DNA from: Candidatus Saccharimonadota bacterium
GTDB lineage: Bacteria > Patescibacteriota > Saccharimonadia > Saccharimonadales > UBA4665
Length of the DNA stretch: 64,000 nt
Assembly: GCA_027371845.1 (NCBI GenBank)
Contig: DAHXLD010000010.1
Location: forward strand, 9,438 to 73,437
Direction: 5' to 3'
Shown here: piece after piece, positions 14,241 through 56,371 of the stretch
Layout of the letters: every line of letters starts with the position of its first letter
How positions within the stretch are numbered: the first letter of the stretch is position 1
Made by a program: the position numbers and the translations under genes
Notes under the pieces: generated by a model
What the model was told of the DNA's origin: nothing
The model's database searches: none
What the model saw: only the letters and a program-made list of their open reading frames with translations

Positions 14241-15407
14241 TTATTTCCTTATTAATGCTAATAATTGTCTTCCAACTACCTGGCTAGGTCTAAGATAGAT
14301 CAATTCTTTATTATTTAAACCTTTAAATTCTATGAGATTATATCCCAGATCGTCCAAATCGTCAATAACGTTCAGCTTCCTAAAGCCGTTACTTGAAACT
14401 TTCCAGGCAGGGACTGCAATGCATAATCTTTGACCTGAACTTAATTGATTAGCCAAATTTTCTAGAAATCCTTTAATTAAATTATTAGCATTTTCAACGA
14501 TTTTATTAAAGGAATTTGAATTCGGTATCTTAGATAATGGGGCGCCTAAACTTGTTTCAGTTGCAACGCAATCAAAATGGGGCCATTGGGTTGTTATTGC
14601 ATCTCCAACCATAAATTCTGAAGTTATATCTTGATCTATATTAAATTTGGTCTTTAACCATTTAATATTATCTATTGAGAAATTTATCATTTGGGGGTTA
14701 AGGTCTGCCCCTATTACGTCATTACCCATTAGCATGGCTTCTTGTAGAATTACTCCCGTTCCACAAAACGGATCTAGAACTACTGATTTCTGACCCCCTG
14801 CGGCAATATTTATTAAGATTTGAGCAAGTTTTGGAGGTAACATGCCATTTCTAGAGTCTCTAAAGGGTCTGTTAAAATCTCGAGCAGCATATCTAGAAAT
14901 ATTTTGAATAAATAGAGTCTTGGTAAGCCATATTTCATTTTTATTAGATATGATATTTACTTCAACATTATTGCCTTTATGTAGTTTGTTGTTTATTATT
15001 TGGGCACTATTTAATTCTTGGTCTCTATTTTCAACATATCTAGATGAACCGAAGTCCTTTAAAAGTTTCTTCTTAATTTGAAATCCTAGCTTATGAATTT
15101 CTTTAAGGGGCAACTCCTTGTTGTAAATACTTAATCCAAAAGTTATTTTTTTGGTTAAATCTTTATCTGATTTTACATATTCGCTAATAATCTCAGAGAG
15201 TCTGGACCAGTCTTTTTGGTCTATGATTTTAGGTATACCAGATACTTTATATGAACCTCCGATTTCCTCCATATTGCCCGGCAAATCGTCTGATTCTAAA
15301 ACCGCAAGATTAGCCGTCATGGGTCTTACGTTTTGTTCTCCGAATAGGCTATAAAGTTCTGCGAGGGAAAGTTCGCTTTGTCTACCTAAATTAAATATAA
15401 ATTTCAT
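14241..15407 (-). CDS. class I SAM-dependent methyltransferase, UPF0020/Trm11-like with N-terminal extra domain
   Basis: 388 aa. Motif I VLDPFCGTGVILQEA and acidic loop GADL. The position where this family has (D/N)PPY reads ATETSLG. Confidence 0.55.
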   Translation of the reverse strand: MKFIFNLGRQSELSLAELYSLFGEQNVRPMTANLAVLESDDLPGNMEEIGGSYKVSGIPKIIDQKDWSRLSEIISEYVKSDKDLTKKITFGLSIYNKELPLKEIHKLGFQIKKKLLKDFGSSRYVENRDQELNSAQIINNKLHKGNNVEVNIISNKNEIWLTKTLFIQNISRYAARDFNRPFRDSRNGMLPPKLAQILINIAAGGQKSVVLDPFCGTGVILQEAMLMGNDVIGADLNPQMINFSIDNIKWLKTKFNIDQDITSEFMVGDAITTQWPHFDCVATETSLGAPLSKIPNSNSFNKIVENANNLIKGFLENLANQLSSGQRLCIAVPAWKVSSNGFRKLNVIDDLDDLGYNLIEFKGLNNKELIYLRPSQVVGRQLLALIRK

Positions 15408-23681: not shown

Positions 23682-23710
23682 TTGACAAAGTATACAATAT
23701 TTGTTATTAT
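23682..23710 (+). promoter_or_regulatory. sigma70-type promoter TTGACA-17 nt-TATTAT
   Basis: TTGACA at 23682-23687 (the same triplet the ORF track used as a TTG start) and TATTAT at 23705-23710. Confidence 0.5.
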
Positions 23711-23801
23711 ATACATAGTGAAAAATAAAATAAAAACTATTATAAAAATTGAAATAAATAGCTTAACAGTATTCTTATTATCTATAGCGGCCATATTTGG
23801 A

Positions 23802-23990
23802 ATGTTCGAGATAACCTATAAAAATCCAAACAAGCTAAATTTATTACCAACTCAGACAGTTTCATTCGTTAGGGTAACTCCGGGTCAAAGTGCCAATAAT
23901 CCAATAAGAAGAGAAAGAGACGAAGTTGATACCCAATATGTTAGTTATTCAGAGTCCCAAAGGACATCACCTAGAACAGGGAAGTACTAA
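23802..23990 (+). CDS. hypothetical small protein (62 aa from ATG 23802); coding status doubtful
   Basis: The upstream part of the listed 102-aa ORF is AT-rich low-complexity sequence that overlaps a promoter. Only the distal part (MFEITYKNPNKL..RTGKY) looks protein-like. No SD and no recognisable motif. Confidence 0.25.
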   Translation: MFEITYKNPNKLNLLPTQTVSFVRVTPGQSANNPIRRERDEVDTQYVSYSESQRTSPRTGKY

Positions 23991-24080
23991 GTTATCCACA
24001 GATAACTGGTTATAAATCCTTTAATTACGTCAGTAACACTAAAATTTAAGGGGTAAAATGTCTATTTACCTTGTGTATAA

Positions 24081-24108: not shown

Positions 24109-24123
24109 TAATATTAGCTTGTG

Positions 24124-24170
24124 GTGGGTTAGGGTGGGTAGTATGCTTAGGTTAGTGGGTAAAAGTGGGT
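24124..24170 (+). promoter_or_regulatory. four phased GTGGGT direct repeats upstream of mraZ (putative MraZ operator)
   Basis: GTGGGT at 24124, 24134, 24155 and 24165 (spacings 10, 21, 10 bp, all on one helical face), 47-93 nt upstream of the mraZ ATG. Confidence 0.65.
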
Positions 24171-24216
24171 AGTAATACCCGAATTAAAATAAAAAAACCA
24201 CTAGTTAAAAAAAGGG

Positions 24217-24576
24217 ATGGCGATAATAGATTACTTTGAAAGAAAACTCGACGACAAAAGGCGGTTAAGTCTACCGGCTGAATTGCGTTCAGAGTTTAAG
24301 AATGGAGTAGTTATTACCCGCGGTTTCAAAAAATATCTACACCTTTATCCTTTAGAGGTGTGGAATAAAGAAGTAGAGCCTCAGCTTTCGGGAAATGTTC
24401 TCGATGAGCACACGGCCGATTTGAATATCCAATTCCGGAGGGGGAAAGTCGAAACTAAAATTGACCTTAAGCAGGGAAGATTTGGTCTAGAAAAGCACCT
24501 CTTAGATTATGCCGGGATTAAAAAAGAAGTTATTGCTGTAAGAGCGGGTAAATACTGGCGACTTATGGCAAAGTAA
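24217..24576 (+). CDS. mraZ: transcriptional regulator MraZ
   Basis: 119 aa. Two SpoVT/AbrB-like half-domains carrying the DxxxR motif (LDDKRRLSLPAELR and DLKQGRFGLEKHLLDYAGI). First gene of the dcw cluster. Confidence 0.85.
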   Translation: MAIIDYFERKLDDKRRLSLPAELRSEFKNGVVITRGFKKYLHLYPLEVWNKEVEPQLSGNVLDEHTADLNIQFRRGKVETKIDLKQGRFGLEKHLLDYAGIKKEVIAVRAGKYWRLMAK

Positions 24577-31571: not shown

Positions 31572-32483
31572 ATGTTTAAAAGAAAAAACAAAAATTCTTA
31601 TCGTAGTCGAGGGGAACGAGATGGAGATAAACCCGTATTTATGTATACATACCATAATGTTAGGGATAATTTTGACGATAAACGAGATAGAAACGAGAAA
31701 AAAGAGCTAATTCCTAAATTAATAAACCCGTTTAAGAAACTTAGCGCTTTAATTGTTTTAATCATCTTATTAATAGCTTTTATAAACTTAATATACCTGT
31801 CTTCAACGCCTAAGGTATACCTTCTTAATAGTAATTCTAAAATTTCTAATCTATATAACTCTTTATACGGACAAAAAGTATATCTTGAAGTAAAAAGCTA
31901 TCTAAACTCTTCCTTACTAAACTATAATAAGTTATCTATAAATCTTAACAGTCTGAACAAAGAGGTTACATCTAAGTTCCCCATAATAACGAACACCTCA
32001 TATAACATCCCTCTTTTTAAGAATCAGGTTGAGATCTATCTGACAACCTCTAATCCGGCCCTATTATTATCTAATAACAAAAACAACTATGTGTTGAATC
32101 AAAATGGTGAGGTTATTTTAAACGATCAAGGCTATAACACCATAGACTCCTTAGATCTACCCAAAATAATTACTAGTGATGGGGCTATTAAGGTTGGCTC
32201 AAGCTTATTGAGCGCACAACAGGTCGGATTTATTCAATCCGTTGACCAGCAATTAGCGGCTAAAAAGTACCTTATTTCATATATGAAGATTAGTGGCGGG
32301 GGAGAGGAGTTAGACGTGTATATAAAAGGTGAAACTTTTTTTGTTAAATTTAATCTTTCCGGTGGCGATGCTAGATTAGAAGCTGGAAGGTTTCTAGCCT
32401 CAATAAATTATTTAACGACAAATAAAATAAACCCTACTCAATACATCGACGTTAGGTCGGAGGGAAGGGTTTTTTATAAATAA
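31572..32483 (+). CDS. FtsQ/DivIB-like cell division protein
   Basis: 303 aa. Basic cytoplasmic N terminus, single TM (LSALIVLIILLIAFINLIYL), extracytoplasmic domain. The call rests mainly on its position after murG. Confidence 0.5.
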   Translation: MFKRKNKNSYRSRGERDGDKPVFMYTYHNVRDNFDDKRDRNEKKELIPKLINPFKKLSALIVLIILLIAFINLIYLSSTPKVYLLNSNSKISNLYNSLYGQKVYLEVKSYLNSSLLNYNKLSINLNSLNKEVTSKFPIITNTSYNIPLFKNQVEIYLTTSNPALLLSNNKNNYVLNQNGEVILNDQGYNTIDSLDLPKIITSDGAIKVGSSLLSAQQVGFIQSVDQQLAAKKYLISYMKISGGGEELDVYIKGETFFVKFNLSGGDARLEAGRFLASINYLTTNKINPTQYIDVRSEGRVFYK

Positions 32484-32580
32484 AATCAGAAGGTCTGTGT
32501 GAAAGAGCTGTAATATAAAAGACTATAAACTTTTAAATAAGACTAATAAAAAATAGATACCTCACCCCCTTCACCCTTCT

Positions 32581-32603
32581 AGTTCGCAAAACGTTCACTA
32601 TTA
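32581..32603 (+). repeat. 23-nt direct repeat copy 1 (AGTTCGCAAAACGTTCACTATTA)
   Basis: Matches 33145-33167 at 22 of 23 positions. Contains TCGCAAAA, the same octamer as the arm of the dif-like site. Confidence 0.8.
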
Positions 32604-32951
32604 ACAAAACAAATAAATGTTTTAAAAAACATATATAAACAAATAAAAACAACCAAATGTCAAAAATATATATTAAAGCAGAGAAAAGTAGGGGATGTCA
32701 AATTTAGTAATCTATATCCTAAAAAAGCAGGTTTCACGATAAAACTGTGGATAAGTCAAATAGTGCCTAAGATCACTCACTAGACCATATGAGTTAATTA
32801 GGGCGTTTAATAAATAGTACTTTAAGGGGGGTTATATAAGAGGCAGTGCTTATAAAGTTTTATGTAATATATAAATATAAGGATACTAAGTAAGAGGGCT
32901 GTTAATCCCCTACAAGAGAGGTATCAATAACCAACTTTTATAATATATGCG

Positions 32952-32979
32952 ACGTCGCAAAATATACATTGTGCGACGT
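32952..32979. other. candidate Xer recombination site (dif-like): 11-bp arm, 6-bp spacer, 11-bp arm
   Basis: ACGTCGCAAAA TATACA TTGTGCGACGT. The arms are inverted repeats (10/11). The minus-strand reading ACGTCGCACAA TGTATA TTTTGCGACGT resembles E. coli dif GGTGCGCATAA TGTATA TTATGTTAAAT. It lies at the coding-strand switch. Confidence 0.55.
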
Positions 32980-33144
32980 TATCTATTAGTATCTATTGCT
33001 GCTGCTCTTCTTTTCATGTTCATCTTTTTAATTCTAATAAAATGTTTTTATTTAATATAATATCCGTATACTCTTCTATCGTGTTAACGATAATCATTAA
33101 ATGGATTTTATCACTACTCTCAACTTGGTTATATATATTAAGTA

Positions 33145-33167
33145 AGTTCGCAAAACGTTCAGTATTA
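33145..33167 (+). repeat. 23-nt direct repeat copy 2 (AGTTCGCAAAACGTTCAGTATTA)
   Basis: See copy 1. The two copies bracket a 541-bp segment that contains the dif-like site. Confidence 0.8.
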
Positions 33168-33231
33168 TTTATATTTTAAAAAAATAGCTATTTATTTAGT
33201 AAGCCTATTTTTTTATTTATTATTTAGGCCG

Positions 33232-34275
33232 TTACTTTTCAGTGAGTTCGTAGGTAGCTTTAGCAACTCTTTTGAATTGGGGTTTTCCTTGAAGGTTTAA
33301 GATAACAGTAGTTTCTTTAACGTATCTATTCTCTAGGACTTTTTTTACGATTTCGTCTTTATGAAGTGGTTTTGAGGCTTCCTTTAAGATTTCAACAATT
33401 ATGTCTGATACTGTGCCTTTTTTATAACCCCACTCTTTAAGCGCATAAAGTCCTCTTCCTATTAACACGAATCTCTTATCTTTTATAAGTTCGTTGTGAA
33501 TTGCCTGGGTAGTAACATTATTTCGTTTAAAGTCGCTTTTTCTAATTGTTTCAGCAATCTCATTAAAATGCATATGTTTGCCATTTTTCTTAAGGACAAC
33601 ATATATTTTATCTCTAATATTTTTTGGGTTTACTGAAGGCCACTTTACTAGTCCCCACACCCCATTAAGACTAGTCAAACTTTTAGATACTGACGCTAAA
33701 GAGGCGACCTGTAGCTTGTTTTGACCCTTAATCAATTTAACTAATTGATCAGCGGTTTGAGGCTCATCTATCTCTTTAATTTTGTTTATAATTGAGTTAA
33801 TGTTCGATTTAATATCTTTTTCGTTGCATGTTTCTTTGATGTATATAAAGCTGTAATATAAGTCATCTTCTTCGATTAGCTCTAATTGTGGGCTTAACTT
33901 TGCTAGAAAAGCTACTCTGGAATTGTCTACCTTAGTGGCATTATCGCAAATCTCTTGAGCCAAGGTAGAAACTCTTATTAAATTTCCCCGCTCTTTTAAT
34001 ATAGGTAGAACTAGCTTATCAAAATTAGCGATGTTATCGGTAAATTGCTTCTGTTTACTGTTAGCGAGCTGGGTTATAATAATCTTTTCAAGTTGTCTCA
34101 CTCTTTCTCTAGTGATGCCCAACATCTCCCCTATTTGCTCTAAGGTCTCTTTGCGGTCGTATAGACCAAAACGTCTAGATATTATCTCTTTTTCTCTGTC
34201 CTTCTCGATCGATGAGATTATTTTATCCACCATAGACTTAACTGATAAGGATGAAACCTCGTTGCTGTTTGCCAT
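33232..34275 (-). CDS. sigma-70 region 4-like HTH fused to HARE-HTH (RNAP delta-like) winged-helix domains
   Basis: 347 aa. N terminus EKEIISRRFGLYDRKETLEQIGEMLGITRERVRQLEKII (region 4.2-like), with no region 2. C-terminal part HMHFNEIAETIRK..KRFVLIGRGLYALKEWGY (HARE-HTH-like) plus a second similar module (PLHKDEIVKKVL..ATYELTE). SD GAGGA upstream. Confidence 0.6.
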   Translation of the reverse strand: MANSNEVSSLSVKSMVDKIISSIEKDREKEIISRRFGLYDRKETLEQIGEMLGITRERVRQLEKIIITQLANSKQKQFTDNIANFDKLVLPILKERGNLIRVSTLAQEICDNATKVDNSRVAFLAKLSPQLELIEEDDLYYSFIYIKETCNEKDIKSNINSIINKIKEIDEPQTADQLVKLIKGQNKLQVASLASVSKSLTSLNGVWGLVKWPSVNPKNIRDKIYVVLKKNGKHMHFNEIAETIRKSDFKRNNVTTQAIHNELIKDKRFVLIGRGLYALKEWGYKKGTVSDIIVEILKEASKPLHKDEIVKKVLENRYVKETTVILNLQGKPQFKRVAKATYELTEK

Positions 34276-42666: not shown

Positions 42667-42753
42667 TATATCTGATTTTAATAGTAGGTAGTCAATTAAA
42701 TATTATAAGAATAAATAAGGTTGTATTGTGATATAGTTGTTTGTATTATAATT

Positions 42754-42830
42754 GGCCCCTTCGTCTAGTGGTCCAGGACACCGGGTTCTCAGTCCGGTAA
42801 TCGCGGGTTCGAATCCCGCAGGGGTCACCA
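42754..42830 (+). tRNA. tRNA-Glu (anticodon CTC), CCA encoded
   Basis: Manual cloverleaf. Acceptor GGCCCCT/AGGGGTC, D arm GTCTAGTGGTCCAGGAC, anticodon stem CCGGG/TCCGG with loop TTCTCAG, T arm GCGGG-TTCGAAT-CCCGC, then ACCA. Confidence 0.9.
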
Positions 42831-42962
42831 AATTTGTTATTAGATACGAATTAGTCGAAAAGCTGCAATATATTAGTTTAGTGGTGTACTCGTATCAGTT
42901 AATCAAGTTCGATTCTCAGTGGCTTTTCTTGATTCACTTTGGTCTTAGCATCGGACATGGCA

Positions 42963-43228
42963 TTAGTATACTTGGTTGTGTGAGCCGACATCTAGAAAGA
43001 TGTATGAAGTAGTAGTTTCATAGTAAACTACACGAATATCACCAGTAATTGAGAAAGCACGTAGATTTTTCATATTTTTACTTAATGGATGGTCGTTTAG
43101 TGGCTTACCTCTTTTACCAGCTATAAAAAGTTTTAGACGATCATCGAAACGTGCTTTAAGATTTTTATTTGGTGCAATGCGTCCCTAAAGTGCTTTTGGA
43201 ACTGCGGTCTTTGTTCAATGTTCTTCAT
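42963..43228 (-). pseudogene. RelE/YafQ-superfamily toxin gene disrupted by a frameshift
   Basis: ATG 43228 gives MKNIEQRPQFQKHF.., which stops at 43133. A second frame (open from 43184) encodes APNKNLKARFDDRLKLFIAGKRGKPLNDHPLSKNMKNLRAFSITGDIRVVYYETTTSYIFLDVGSHNQVY and ends at 42963. Joined, the length would be about 88 aa. The gene lies 45 nt downstream of the antitoxin. Confidence 0.65.
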
Positions 43229-43273
43229 GTCCGTATAAATCTGCGGGGAAGTCTTCTACGTCTGTATAGGTCT

Positions 43274-43519
43274 TTAATTTGCCAGTTTTTTGTCTGCCAT
43301 ATGTTCAGCTAGCATTTTTTCATACCTAGCCTCGGCAGCTGGACTTAACCTTTCACTAATACTAAGACTAAAATCCATCTTGTTACGAACAACCGTACTA
43401 TACATAACGCGTGTAAAATCCTGTACCGAATTAAAACCTAGTTGGCGGGCATGTTTAGCTACGGCATCACGTAGTGACTTATCGAGAGGTATCTGTAATT
43501 TAACTGTCATATTACTCAT
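43274..43519 (-). CDS. RelB/DinJ-like (ribbon-helix-helix) antitoxin
   Basis: 81 aa. VKLQIPLDKSLRDAVAKHARQLGFNSVQDFTRVM follows the beta-strand plus two-helix RHH pattern. Upstream partner of the toxin remnant. Confidence 0.6.
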   Translation of the reverse strand: MSNMTVKLQIPLDKSLRDAVAKHARQLGFNSVQDFTRVMYSTVVRNKMDFSLSISERLSPAAEARYEKMLAEHMADKKLAN

Positions 43520-43525
43520 ACATCT

Positions 43526-43554
43526 ATAGTATCAAAGCTGTCAAAGTATGTCAA
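43526..43554 (-). promoter_or_regulatory. promoter/operator of the antitoxin gene (TTGACA-17 nt-TACTAT)
   Basis: The minus strand reads TTGACATACTTTGACAGCTTTGATACTAT. TTTGACA/TTTGATA direct repeats lie within the spacer, flanked by the inverted repeat TAGTAT..ATACTA. Confidence 0.5.
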
Positions 43555-43608
43555 ATCTATACTACTCAACTCATCATACCACCTGAGTATTTCAGAACAA
43601 AACCCCAA

Positions 43609-43630
43609 TTCGAGTGCAAGAGGGTCACCA
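43609..43630 (+). repeat. degenerate copy of the tRNA-Glu 3' end (TTCGAGTGCAAGAGGGTCACCA)
   Basis: Shares TTCGA and the terminal GGGTCACCA with tRNA-Glu 42808-42830. The two GGGTCACCA 9-mers are exactly 800 bp apart and bracket the toxin-antitoxin cassette. Confidence 0.55.
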
Positions 43631-43933
43631 TTAGTGGGTCTTCTGTATTAGAAAACTCTTTTTCATTGGGGATGCATCTGTAAAACGGTCTAATTTTTGA
43701 GTTTTTAGATATCTGCTTGCTTGTGTGGAGTTCAAGACCTTATGGCCTTTTGAATGTGAAGTTGGTTTAATAGTTGCTGTTTGCCTAGCGCGGCTCACAA
43801 TACTCCAACGGTATTTTTTATAACACTCTCAACGGCTTAGGCCTAATGAGCTTAAGCCAGATTTTGGTACAAATAGTTTAGGTATTACTAATTTATATTG
43901 CCAAGTTTTACTAATAAAATAAAAAAGGACCCC

Positions 43934-44524
43934 CTATTTTTTATAAGCCAATGTTTTATGTGCCATTATTGCAGCAAGAAATTGAATTATTGCCATTGTT
44001 ATAAATAAGCCTTTGAAACCGTAGATACCTATTACTAAACCGCCAATTGCAGCACCTATAGCTCCAGCAAACATATTACTGCTATCCATCCAAGACCATT
44101 CTTCGCTCTCCTTACCCTTTCCTTGGTTCCTAGCAAACATGGTTTTAAGGGCTGGAAATGTTATGCCAGCACCAAGTGCATTAAGACTTAACACAAGTAA
44201 TAGCCCACTCGCACTATGAACTGTTAAAAACAGTAAATCAGCTATTGGATAAATATAGACACCTAACTTAACATATTTTTCTTTTCTACGGCGATTTTCA
44301 TATTTGCCAAATAATAAAATAAGAATAGCAGCCATCATTGAATATGCACTCCAAATGAAGCCAATATATCTTGGTGTGATGTCTATGCTTTTAGCGAATA
44401 ATGCATATAACGGTGCAAAAATATAGAAACCAACCTGGCTAAAAATATATATGTAGAGGAGGAACTTAAGTTTTTTTGCTTTAGTCATTTTTATTAATAA
44501 TACTTTGTTAGTTTTATTATACAT
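43934..44524 (-). CDS. six-TM protein resembling one half of an MFS transporter (possibly truncated)
   Basis: 196 aa (or 184 aa from ATG 44488). Six hydrophobic helices with an MFS-like loop (GKYENRRRKEKY) and a Gly-rich helix (FAGAIGAAIGGLVIG). No partner half is adjacent. Confidence 0.4.
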   Translation of the reverse strand: MYNKTNKVLLIKMTKAKKLKFLLYIYIFSQVGFYIFAPLYALFAKSIDITPRYIGFIWSAYSMMAAILILLFGKYENRRRKEKYVKLGVYIYPIADLLFLTVHSASGLLLVLSLNALGAGITFPALKTMFARNQGKGKESEEWSWMDSSNMFAGAIGAAIGGLVIGIYGFKGLFITMAIIQFLAAIMAHKTLAYKK

Positions 44525-44700
44525 TTAATTACGGTTTTTGCTTCAAAGTAAAGTAATTACTCCTATTATCTATTGCCAAGCCATATCAATATTCCGATCA
44601 GTCAGGGTTTAATTAGACCAGCCAGGTTCTTGCTGCAATTAGTAAATATATAAATTATGCTTAAATCGTAAAAAACCAAGATAATTTAAGGATTAACTTA

Positions 44701-45146
44701 AGTGGGCAAATTAAAATATAACCAGAAAGGCTTCAGTGCAATAGAGGTTGTTCAATAACTACAGATAATTCTAATTCGCCAACAACAATATACCTTCAAT
44801 TTAGTACCGATAGCATTAACATAGACTGCGCTGATGCTTTTTGCCAAGTTACAACAGCTGTTCCACTTAGTAATTCGCAGTTACCAGGAGCAGTTCTTGC
44901 TGTTGCTAATCAGACTAGTGGTAACGGAACTAAGTTTACAGAGTATGTCGTTGCCAGTAGCAGTACAAAAGTCGGAGATAAGACTATAAATGCTGTTAAA
45001 ACTGGTAGCAGTAATATTTATGTATTTGGCCAACCCTATTACAGTACTGGTGGACAAGGAGATTTTTCTAGAGAAGCTGGTCGAGTTAATGATGTTACAG
45101 CCCTTCAATCCAACAGTTATTTTATAGACCTGGTTCAACTAATTAA
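44701..45146 (+). pseudogene. type IV pilin-like gene remnant (prepilin signal peptide separated from body by stop/frameshift)
   Basis: GTG 44701 encodes VGKLKYNQKGFSAIEVVQ-stop, which carries a class III signal motif (G/FSxIE). A different frame (44721-45146, no start codon) encodes a 141-aa Ser/Thr/Gly-rich body with a Cys pair (DCADAFC). The hydrophobic alpha1 helix is missing. Confidence 0.5.
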
Positions 45147-45328
45147 CTCCATCAAGTTTAATTAGAAGCTAATTTGTAGTTATAATCCCCTATTGGGGAG
45201 ATTAATCAGTTAGCATTACGGCCTTCTTGTCTCTAGCTGGCGTAAAGCTATAACCGATTATGGCAGCAGTAGATCAAAGTAAGATAAAACCCACACCTTG
45301 TGTATTAATAGCCCTATAGTTTCTTATA

Positions 45329-55330: not shown

Positions 55331-56371
55331 TTACATGGTGGCGGCAATTTCAATAATTTGTTGAACACTTAAGGAGTTGTTGTCTTGAACAATATACCAA
55401 ATTCCGTTATGGGTCCAGGTGGCTAAAGAATTGCCATTATAGGTGTATATTGTTAAATTATTTTGAGTTATGGTTTGATAATTCAGTCCAGCTCTATTAA
55501 TAACATAATTATTTAAAAGATCACTACTATTCCAATTAGATTTTTTCTCGATAATTGAATAAGTTCTTGAATCGGAATTACTTTTAAAAGTACTTTCAAC
55601 GATTCCTGAGGCTGAGCTTACGGTGCTTAAGTTAAATCCAGAGGGGTTGTAGCTGGAAACGGTAGGACTAAACCCTGCTCTCGAAGCAGCTAAGTATAGA
55701 GAAACTTTATTAAGATTATGCCCAAGATATATCCCGCCTATTATTAATGCTATCGCTAAGACCGAAAGACTTGAAACTAAAACTGAAAATTTATGGTTTT
55801 TTTGTTTCTTATGTTTTGATTTTAAAGGCTTGGAATATTTAAGGTACATAGCTTGTTCTGGAATGGGGGTGGTTCTTAGGGCTTCTTCAAAAATATTTTT
55901 GGCTAGTTGGGGAGTATTATCTAAAGAATTTGGGACAGATTCTTGATTGTCGGTTTCTATTTTAGATGTATTACTAAATTCTAGATTTTGATCAGTTAAC
56001 ACAAGGCTTGAATTAGTTGAAAAAACTTGTTGAGGCTGATCCTCGGTCTGAGTATTGGCGGTTGAGCTGAATCGACTTATTAATTCACTTCTAGGTATTT
56101 TGTAATTTCTAGGATGTCTATTGTGTACGTACCCGTCAAGCTTAGATTCATATTCTTGAGGGTCTTCTTTTTGAGGTTGATCGTTAGTTGAAATGTTTCC
56201 CGAAACGGTGTTAATAGAAACATTTGATCCTAAGGGGTTCTTGACACTGTTTCGCATAAGAGTATTGGATTTTTGGAGATTTCTATGCTTAATATGATTA
56301 ACATCAGCATAGACTTTAAAATCCATGTATTTACTACTTGAACTTTGTTGGCTCTGATAATTTTTATCCAT
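55331..56371 (-). CDS. membrane-anchored protein with disordered cytoplasmic N terminus and DUF4367-like extracytoplasmic domain
   Basis: 346 aa. Ser/Gln/Asn-rich first 190 aa or so, TM (FSVLVSSLSVLAIALIIGGIYL), and a C-terminal domain ending WTHNGIWYIVQDNNSLSVQQIIEIAATM. Confidence 0.5.
   Translation of the reverse strand: MDKNYQSQQSSSSKYMDFKVYADVNHIKHRNLQKSNTLMRNSVKNPLGSNVSINTVSGNISTNDQPQKEDPQEYESKLDGYVHNRHPRNYKIPRSELISRFSSTANTQTEDQPQQVFSTNSSLVLTDQNLEFSNTSKIETDNQESVPNSLDNTPQLAKNIFEEALRTTPIPEQAMYLKYSKPLKSKHKKQKNHKFSVLVSSLSVLAIALIIGGIYLGHNLNKVSLYLAASRAGFSPTVSSYNPSGFNLSTVSSASGIVESTFKSNSDSRTYSIIEKKSNWNSSDLLNNYVINRAGLNYQTITQNNLTIYTYNGNSLATWTHNGIWYIVQDNNSLSVQQIIEIAATM

Follow-up and report, generated by a model that had tools for sequence, protein, structure and literature searches.

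A probable Xer/dif-type recombination site within a conserved non-coding module beside the dcw operon of Saccharimonadia

Positions 32952-32979 of the 64-kb stretch analysed here (part of contig DAHXLD010000010.1 of a Saccharimonadia bacterium; the whole stretch is henceforth referred to as 'the window') carry a 28-bp imperfect palindrome, ACGTCGCAAAATATACATTGTGCGACGT, which an earlier note on this DNA had read as a dif-like site lying exactly at a switch of coding strand and as a candidate replication terminus. The 28-mer lies in a non-coding gap of 748 bp (32484-33231; 28% G+C). To its left ends a plus-strand division and cell wall (dcw) cluster comprising mraZ, rsmH, a penicillin-binding protein gene, mraY, ftsW, murG and a gene for a 303-aa protein, and to its right follow, on the minus strand, a gene for a Sigma70_r4/HARE-HTH protein, topA, pth, der and rluB. 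The switch of coding strand at the site, described in the earlier note, is real: 30 plus-strand open reading frames (ORFs) of at least 100 aa and one credible minus-strand ORF (14241-15407) were found to the left, and 16 minus-strand ORFs of at least 100 aa, together with a tRNA-Glu on the plus strand, to the right up to position 56371. Reading the window sequence likewise confirmed the described 11-6-11 layout, in which the arms ACGTCGCAAAA and the reverse complement of TTGTGCGACGT, that is ACGTCGCACAA, match at 10 of 11 positions and flank the spacer TATACA, which is TGTATA when read on the minus strand. The near-identical arms read GTCGCAcAA and TTtTGCGAC and thus differ at one inner position only. 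The 28-mer occurs once in the window, even when up to three mismatches are allowed.

We compared the gap with those of relatives. In an alignment of the gaps of four relatives a 24-nt core, GTCGCACAATGTATATTTTGCGAC, was invariant while the rest of the gap had mostly diverged, and the order of dcw cluster, ~700-bp gap and sigma-like gene plus topA was kept where the 347-aa sigma-like protein was 82%, 64% and 60% identical; the core is invariant although the flanking protein is only 60-82% identical. A scan of one genome per GTDB species with the degenerate 22-mer TCGCANAATGTATATTNTGCGA returned at least 120 matching stretches from 120 different assemblies, one each (most of these assemblies being drafts, which lowers the power of the count), so that the check for a second copy suggested by the earlier note revealed none, either here or in the window. 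Carriers among the matches listed were mostly Saccharibacteria, together with Moranii-, Magasanikii-, Woese-, Taylor- and Paceibacteria and a few metagenome-assembled genomes (MAGs) labelled Bacillota or archaea. The 129 loci that we fetched share the same core, with arms and centre essentially fixed and one inner position varying (CACAA/TTTTG, CAAAA/TTGTG, CATAA/TTATG or CAGAA/TTCTG), the commonest form being asymmetric. Every Saccharimonadia locus has the motif beyond the stop codon of the last dcw gene and in a single orientation, at a distance from that stop of ~400-550 bp in most cases; this chromosomal placement is constant through the class, even where the neighbouring MurG is only 30-40% identical. 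The distance to the sigma-like gene ranges among relatives from ~0.2 to 3.4 kb. The window sequence itself is also present in metagenome contigs.

The fixed arms and centre, combined with the occurrence of both symmetric and asymmetric variants, fit a protein-bound DNA site better than an RNA hairpin. We nevertheless considered whether the palindrome could act as RNA, either as a bidirectional terminator between convergent operons or as part of an unannotated non-coding RNA, since it does lie between convergent genes, could form a stem of 9-11 bp and sits in a gap whose length of ~700 bp is conserved. This explanation is very unlikely. The loop is invariant, the commonest variant introduces a C.U or A.G mismatch into the stem rather than compensatory pairs, and neither strand carries a U-tract; membership of the intrinsic terminators was rejected because a terminator scan of 32300-33400 returned no sites and no T-run follows the palindrome on either strand. 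A non-coding RNA was also tried and rejected: Rfam 15 gave no family at gathering or E-value threshold in the module described below, in the window gap or in 13 related loci (one sub-threshold chance match fell in the gap region, and the only matches in the window were two tRNAs, both outside the gap), and RNAalifold found no consensus structure for the conserved flank adjoining the site.

In other lineages the motif is found close to recombinase genes. A tyrosine recombinase gene lies within ~2 kb of the motif at 13 loci, all of them outside the syntenic Saccharimonadia group; in several cases it starts within 60 bp of the motif, and the best NCBIfam models for these recombinases were XerC, XerD or XerA, with two proteins exceeding the XerA equivalog cut-off. 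We also ran the test in reverse. A profile built from four motif-adjacent proteins retrieved many Patescibacteria homologues, three of which were picked solely because they lay on long contigs, and each of these three xer genes proved to have, 0.9-1.2 kb upstream, a site whose arms are the same, the centre being TGTATA in one and GTTATA in two. This linkage to xer in both directions is the strongest evidence for the motif family being a target of Xer. Modules of this kind, with a single Xer gene 50 bp to 2 kb from the motif, were seen at L018, L024, L025, L044, L046, L093, L097, L099, L100, L108, L110, L111, L121 and L149-L151, in MAGs labelled Woesebacteria, Moraniibacteriota, 'Patescibacteria group', Bacillota/Clostridia, Nanobdellota and Methanofollis, of which some labels (e.g. 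Pseudomonadales) look mis-binned. L149 and L151 are the loci with GTTATA in place of TGTATA, and at L150 (7515-12972) and L151 (8156-12936), both of them Patescibacteria loci, the xer-dif module is convergent with gyrA and with a gyrB that contains an intein. The gyrA and gyrB genes lie near the origin in many bacteria.

Overall, the 28-mer is very probably a chromosomal Xer/dif-type recombination site of this Saccharimonadia bacterium, a member of the Patescibacteria or candidate phyla radiation (CPR). That part of the earlier claim stands by virtue of the invariance of the core, its occurrence once per assembly and the adjacency of xer elsewhere; the part that placed a terminus at the switch does not, on account of the skew described below. 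Conservation, single copy, linkage to xer in other lineages and the lack of a skew switch are observed, whereas binding and cleavage, the resolution of dimers, how many recombinases act and what the flanks do are inferred. Subunits of a Xer-family tyrosine recombinase would bind the two near-identical 11-bp arms, two sites on a chromosome dimer would pair, strands would be cut at the edges of the 6-bp centre TGTATA, and exchange via a Holliday junction would convert the dimer to two monomers before division. A single recombinase, as in the XerA, XerH and XerS systems, appears more likely than a XerC/XerD pair, because the arms differ at one inner position and because a single xer gene adjoins the motif in other Patescibacteria.

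Several results weigh against this identification and have to be set beside it. Firstly, neither the palindrome nor its similarity to E. coli dif rises above chance in a window this rich in A+T. The window holds two 11-6-11 palindromes with at least 10 of 11 matching arm positions, compared with 1.6 ± 1.0 in Markov-simulated windows, and the match to E. coli dif at 18 of 28 positions is equalled or exceeded by some 28-mer in 100 of 100 simulated windows. The likeness to dif put forward in the earlier note holds for the identical central hexamer (TGTATA, also the E. coli dif centre) and for the similar inner arms, which match at 4/5 and 4/5 positions (CAcAA/TTtTG versus CATAA/TTATG), but this likeness and the palindromic layout are not significant by themselves; we consider the site non-random because it is conserved across genomes and linked to xer genes. 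Secondly, no Xer or Phage_integrase protein was found in the window or in the 10 kb further left, an extension that holds co-oriented genes only, and no xer gene was found within the fetched flanks of any syntenic Saccharimonadia locus. A Xer protein in the genome of the window is therefore assumed; a profile search for a Saccharimonadia Xer returned, among its best 120 matches, proteins of other Patescibacteria only. In addition, no FtsK gene was present among the window proteins, and a crude motif scan, run over the window and the first 129 of the fetched loci, found neither dnaA nor ftsK near the motif. Thirdly, the site lies inside a larger conserved non-coding module and so may serve the function of that module. 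Fourthly, the motif lies at 0.758 of the complete record CP023991.1 (the start of this record being unconfirmed). Finally, the synonymous-site skew shows no switch at the site, and the plus strand looks like the leading strand over all 64 kb.

The last of these points follows from separating coding from replication effects. Total GC skew was ~+0.12 to the left and ~-0.02 to the right of the site. The earlier note had expected the extremum of the cumulative GC skew at about 33 kb; the curve has only a local maximum there (3.51), is still rising beyond 58 kb, exceeds that maximum by 61 kb and climbs to 3.85 at 64 kb. We therefore computed the coding-strand skew at third codon positions (GC3) and at 4-fold sites. 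On the left, the plus-strand genes (n = 30) had a GC3 skew of +0.05 and a 4-fold skew of -0.09, and the one minus-strand gene had values of -0.15 and -0.44; on the right, the values were +0.04 and -0.06 for plus-strand genes (n = 3), -0.20 and -0.38 for minus-strand genes at 33-56 kb (n = 16) and -0.34 and -0.37 for minus-strand genes beyond 56 kb (n = 3). The synonymous-site skew thus tracks the strand of the gene and not the side of the site, as does the AT3 skew, and a two-component solution gave a constant replication term of ~+0.14 on the plus strand across the whole window. Since a terminus at 33 kb requires plus-strand genes on the left and minus-strand genes on the right to be alike, and the two differ in skew (Mann-Whitney p = 1e-7), a terminus at this position is not supported; no third-codon or 4-fold switch occurs within ~31-33 kb on either side, contrary to the exact coincidence of terminus and strand switch proposed earlier. 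The flip of total skew at 33 kb is the purine-rich coding strand changing sides.

The same asymmetry was found in 79 of 81 syntenic relatives (mean difference -0.27), with no switch within 4-10 kb, and in every gene of the 21-kb locus L006; at the strongly skewed locus L060 not even the sign of the total skew changes across the site. It was also evident at loci of mixed gene orientation (L018, L110, L111 and L149-L151). Total GC skew does flip at the site in L024, L097 and L099, three loci that lie next to xer genes in MAGs labelled Clostridia, Eubacteriales or Bacillota. Two of them, L024 and L099, have usable genes to the left and right, and in these the third-codon skew is similar on the two sides; a skew switch at the site would be compatible with all three loci. 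By skew, the switch in the window's chromosome lies at least 31 kb beyond the site on the topA side, and forks coming from the dcw side pass through the site. Kono et al. reported that dif in Proteobacteria and Firmicutes lies within 0-1.39% of genome length (±1 sigma) from the skew shift point, and none beyond 3% (PMC3025954). For a genome of ~1 Mb, a size that we assumed from relatives' chromosome-scale contigs of ~0.85-1.3 Mb, the 31-kb offset is at or past that limit. The site may nonetheless belong to the terminus-proximal portion of the chromosome: fractional positions of the motif are 0.487 in CP064960.1, 0.466 in OY970327.1 and 0.504 in JAXHLG010000002.1, records whose starts are, again, unconfirmed. 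Replication in Saccharibacteria is reported to be bidirectional, from an origin between dnaN and dnaA (PMC6031116).

Throughout the window the plus strand is G- and T-rich at synonymous sites. With the plus strand leading by skew, replication forks would meet transcription head-on in the 16 genes at 33-56 kb (among them topA, pth, der, rluB, gltX and two-component systems), an arrangement that is conserved across the class. Two further ideas were tried and rejected. A polarity of the arms fixed relative to fork direction across lineages became inconsistent once L149-L151 were added. An origin of replication, suggested by a TTATCCACA box and AT-rich promoter-like blocks, was dismissed because the genes converge, the box is single and the skew does not switch; membership of the oriC class fails on the same grounds, with one DnaA-box-like 9-mer only.

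The site is embedded in a non-coding module of ~590 bp beside the dcw operon, in which Box1, the core, a conserved flank, a DnaA-box-like block, a promoter-like block and Box2 follow one another at fixed spacing (Table 1). The module spans 32561-33167 in the window and was seen at loci L003, L006, L008 and L010-L129.

Table 1. Coordinates of the 28-bp site and of the features around it in the window
Feature	Position	Strand	Description
303-aa protein, last gene of the dcw cluster, left edge of gap	31572..32483	+	no Pfam match; usual ftsQ position
Box2, second copy of the direct repeat	32581..32603	-	a G-rich tract comes next on the minus strand (32561-32580); ~100 bp beyond the stop codon of the 303-aa gene
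Promoter-like element	32627..32663	-	TTGACA (32663-32658), 18-nt spacer, TTTATA (32639-32634), then TATGTTTTTT
Conserved block TTGACTTATCCACAG...CGTGAAAC	32718..32775	-	with a perfect DnaA-box-like 9-mer TTATCCACA at 32746-32754
Conserved flank	32902..32939	-	AAAAGTTGGTTATTGATACC then TCTCTTGTAGGGGATTAA on the minus strand; consensus ATAGnTGATTA ... ATACCCCTGCTGTAGGGGAGT in an 80-locus alignment
28-bp dif-type core	32952..32979	-	ACGTCGCACAA-TGTATA-TTTTGCGACGT: two 11-bp arms (presumed recombinase-binding) and a 6-bp centre
Box1, direct-repeat box	33145..33167	-	minus-strand core GAACGTTTTGCGAAC; located between the 28-bp site and the gene for the sigma-like HTH protein
Sigma70_r4 + HARE-HTH DNA-binding protein, 347 aa, right edge of gap	33232..34275	-	converges on the site

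Box1 and Box2 form a direct repeat identical at 22 of 23 positions and 564 bp apart, none being expected by chance, with the consensus GAACAWWWTRCGAAC. Relative to the motif, Box1 lies at about -180 bp and stays beside it even where the sigma-like gene is distant, the conserved flank at +10 to +60 bp, the DnaA-like block (consensus TTGACTT(T/A)TCCACAG...CGTGAAA, also written TTGACTTWTCCACAG) at about +220 bp and Box2 at about +380 bp. Among 80 Saccharimonadia loci, Box1 was found in 76 (-166 to -250 bp; 0.4% of shuffles), TTWTNCACA in 78 (+167 to +296 bp; 1.3% of shuffles) and Box2 in 61 (+321 to +443 bp; 0.7% of shuffles), and Box1, the DnaA-like match and Box2 occurred together in 60. The promoter-like element faces Box2 and the 303-aa gene's 3' end; its consensus over 54 loci anchored on TTGACW is TTGACW-N18-TATA-TTTTT, and a generic promoter scan did not list the element in the window. 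Twenty-five loci of other lineages lack the module, except for a Box2-like element in three deep-branching loci. There is no conserved ORF in the gap: the small ORFs that it contains, one of 37 aa starting inside the palindrome and another ending in Box2, were rejected as genes since their frame and length vary among relatives. The boxes were also considered as half dif sites, as both share TCGCAAAA with an arm, and this was rejected because GAACAWWWTRCGAAC is better understood as a direct repeat of GAAC(A) at 11-bp spacing.

The Sigma70_r4 + HARE-HTH gene, which usually adjoins the module, is highly conserved and very widespread in Saccharimonadia; its 347-aa product has at least 8000 matches, with 57-64% identity among most of those listed (homologues P0001-P0120), and the named homologues are labelled Candidatus Saccharimonadales/Saccharimonadia or Patescibacteria. 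A search for a regulon of the boxes or of the DnaA-like block elsewhere in the window found none. TTWTNCACA occurs three times in the window where 6.7 are expected, and is thus if anything rarer, and the only other perfect TTATCCACA of the window is held by a palindrome, AGTTATCCACAGATAACT (23989-24006), at the end of the ORF 23682-23990.

The module gives rise to another explanation, in which the palindrome would be an operator, or a binding site for an architectural protein, belonging to the ~590-bp module (for example, a regulatory or chromosome-organising locus to which a dimeric DNA-binding protein binds), and in which its likeness to dif in Saccharimonadia would be incidental. Such a role would account for the fixed spacing among the boxes and the DnaA-like and promoter-like blocks, for the co-occurrence of all three elements in 60 of 80 loci against ~1% for each alone, for a DNA-binding protein gene as the usual neighbour, and for a site with neither a skew switch nor a xer gene nearby. 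We regard it as unlikely, however: the same arms occur in other lineages without the module, beside xer genes or in phage contigs, the 6-bp centre is as invariant as the arms, which is expected of a crossover region, and there is one copy per genome. If the 28-mer is instead a Xer target, the conserved flanks could be, as a hypothesis only, accessory or regulatory DNA for Xer recombination. A fuller version of this idea, which we put forward as doubtful, is that the dif-type core would be the centre of a dedicated ~590-bp 'dif module' beside the dcw operon, whose flanks might provide an FtsK-independent topological filter as in cer and psi or link dimer resolution to division or DnaA status, which would work inside a replichore, and not where forks converge, as archaeal XerA/dif does, and at which tailed phages of Patescibacteria with the same core would integrate via the host Xer.

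Copies of the motif were found in 16 IMG/VR contigs, one of which is a Saccharimonadia locus itself. In five others (L133, L134, L135, L139 and L148) the motif lies 0.1-1.5 kb from genes for the small or large terminase subunit (PHROGs), which confirm these contigs as tailed phages. Further motif-bearing IMG/VR contigs are L136, L137 and L140-L147. No tyrosine recombinase was detected in the fetched parts of the IMG/VR contigs. The motif-bearing phage contigs are candidate tailed phages of Patescibacteria that would integrate via the host Xer in the manner of integrative mobile elements exploiting Xer (IMEX), and the phage copies fit mobile elements exploiting a host recombination site. They also raise the question of whether the window site belongs to a mobile element, as its remnant or its attachment site (IMEX or prophage att), rather than being the cell's own site for dimer resolution, a view to which the 23-bp direct repeats flanking the site 564 bp apart would lend themselves. 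This appears highly improbable given that the site keeps the same chromosomal position through the class, down to the low MurG identities given above, that the gap holds no conserved ORF and that each locus has only one full site; furthermore, IMEX elements use the host dif, so this view largely merges with that of a chromosomal Xer/dif-type site.

The site shares features with several known systems. Like the dif sites of the XerC/XerD systems of E. coli and B. subtilis, it is a 28-bp sequence of 11-6-11 layout with the E. coli centre TGTATA, present in one copy per chromosome in non-coding DNA at a convergent junction; unlike them, it has almost identical arms rather than distinct XerC and XerD arms, lies at least 31 kb from the skew switch, where dif lies within ~1.4% of genome length at ±1 sigma (PMC3025954), and is embedded in a conserved non-coding module. 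Near-palindromic arms that imply one recombinase are a feature shared with XerA/dif of archaea, XerH/difH of Helicobacter and Campylobacter and XerS/difSL of streptococci and lactococci. A recombinase gene beside its own site has been described for xerS/difSL and some xerA/dif pairs (PMC5357621), and the single xer gene beside the motif in other Patescibacteria and in archaeal- or Bacillota-labelled MAGs resembles this arrangement, whereas the window and the syntenic Saccharimonadia loci have no adjacent xer. Archaeal dif, too, is often not 180 degrees from the origin. In contrast, difSL is 31 bp long with an 11-bp centre, compared with the 6-bp centre here. The plasmid sites cer and psi likewise combine a Xer core with a few hundred bp of conserved non-coding DNA, which in the present case might bind accessory proteins and impose selectivity for resolution; they differ in that the window site is chromosomal and has conserved DNA on both sides of the core, and binding by ArgR, PepA or ArcA is not known for it. 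Finally, as in the IMEX elements CTXphi, VGJphi, TLCphi and the gonococcal genetic island, mobile-element contigs (the 16 from IMG/VR) bear a copy of the host dif-like motif, but the confirmed phage contigs here are tailed-phage genomes with the motif near terminase genes.

Some features elsewhere in the window were also recorded. Two pairs of GTGGG-N5-GTGGG direct repeats (24121-24172) lie 45-95 bp upstream of mraZ, whose ATG is at 24217; we take these to resemble the MraZ operator repeats of E. coli. The only credible minus-strand gene of the left half (14241-15407), for a DNA methyltransferase with N6_N4_Mtase/UPF0020 domains, lies where GC and AT skew dip locally and may have been acquired. 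The region 42667-45328 is sparsely coding, with a tRNA-Glu(CTC) on the plus strand (42754-42830), a 196-aa fragment of a major facilitator superfamily (MFS) protein (43934-44524) and stretches devoid of ORFs. The fragment may belong to a decayed or split MFS gene; a similar short MFS ORF is present in the relatives L003 and L004.

Patescibacteria/CPR make up a large share of bacterial diversity, and chromosome maintenance in them is almost unknown; within the searchable collection of literature we found no paper tying dif or Xer to Patescibacteria. A single-copy, sequence-defined Xer site would be a landmark for genome curation and for checks of MAG assembly, and would give the few Saccharibacteria that can be cultured a candidate target for integration and for excising markers by Xer. 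The module and the phage-borne copies provide concrete, testable leads. With this site it can be asked whether these ultra-small cells tie dimer resolution to the terminus; our skew data suggest that they do not, and that they may in this respect be more like archaea than like model bacteria.

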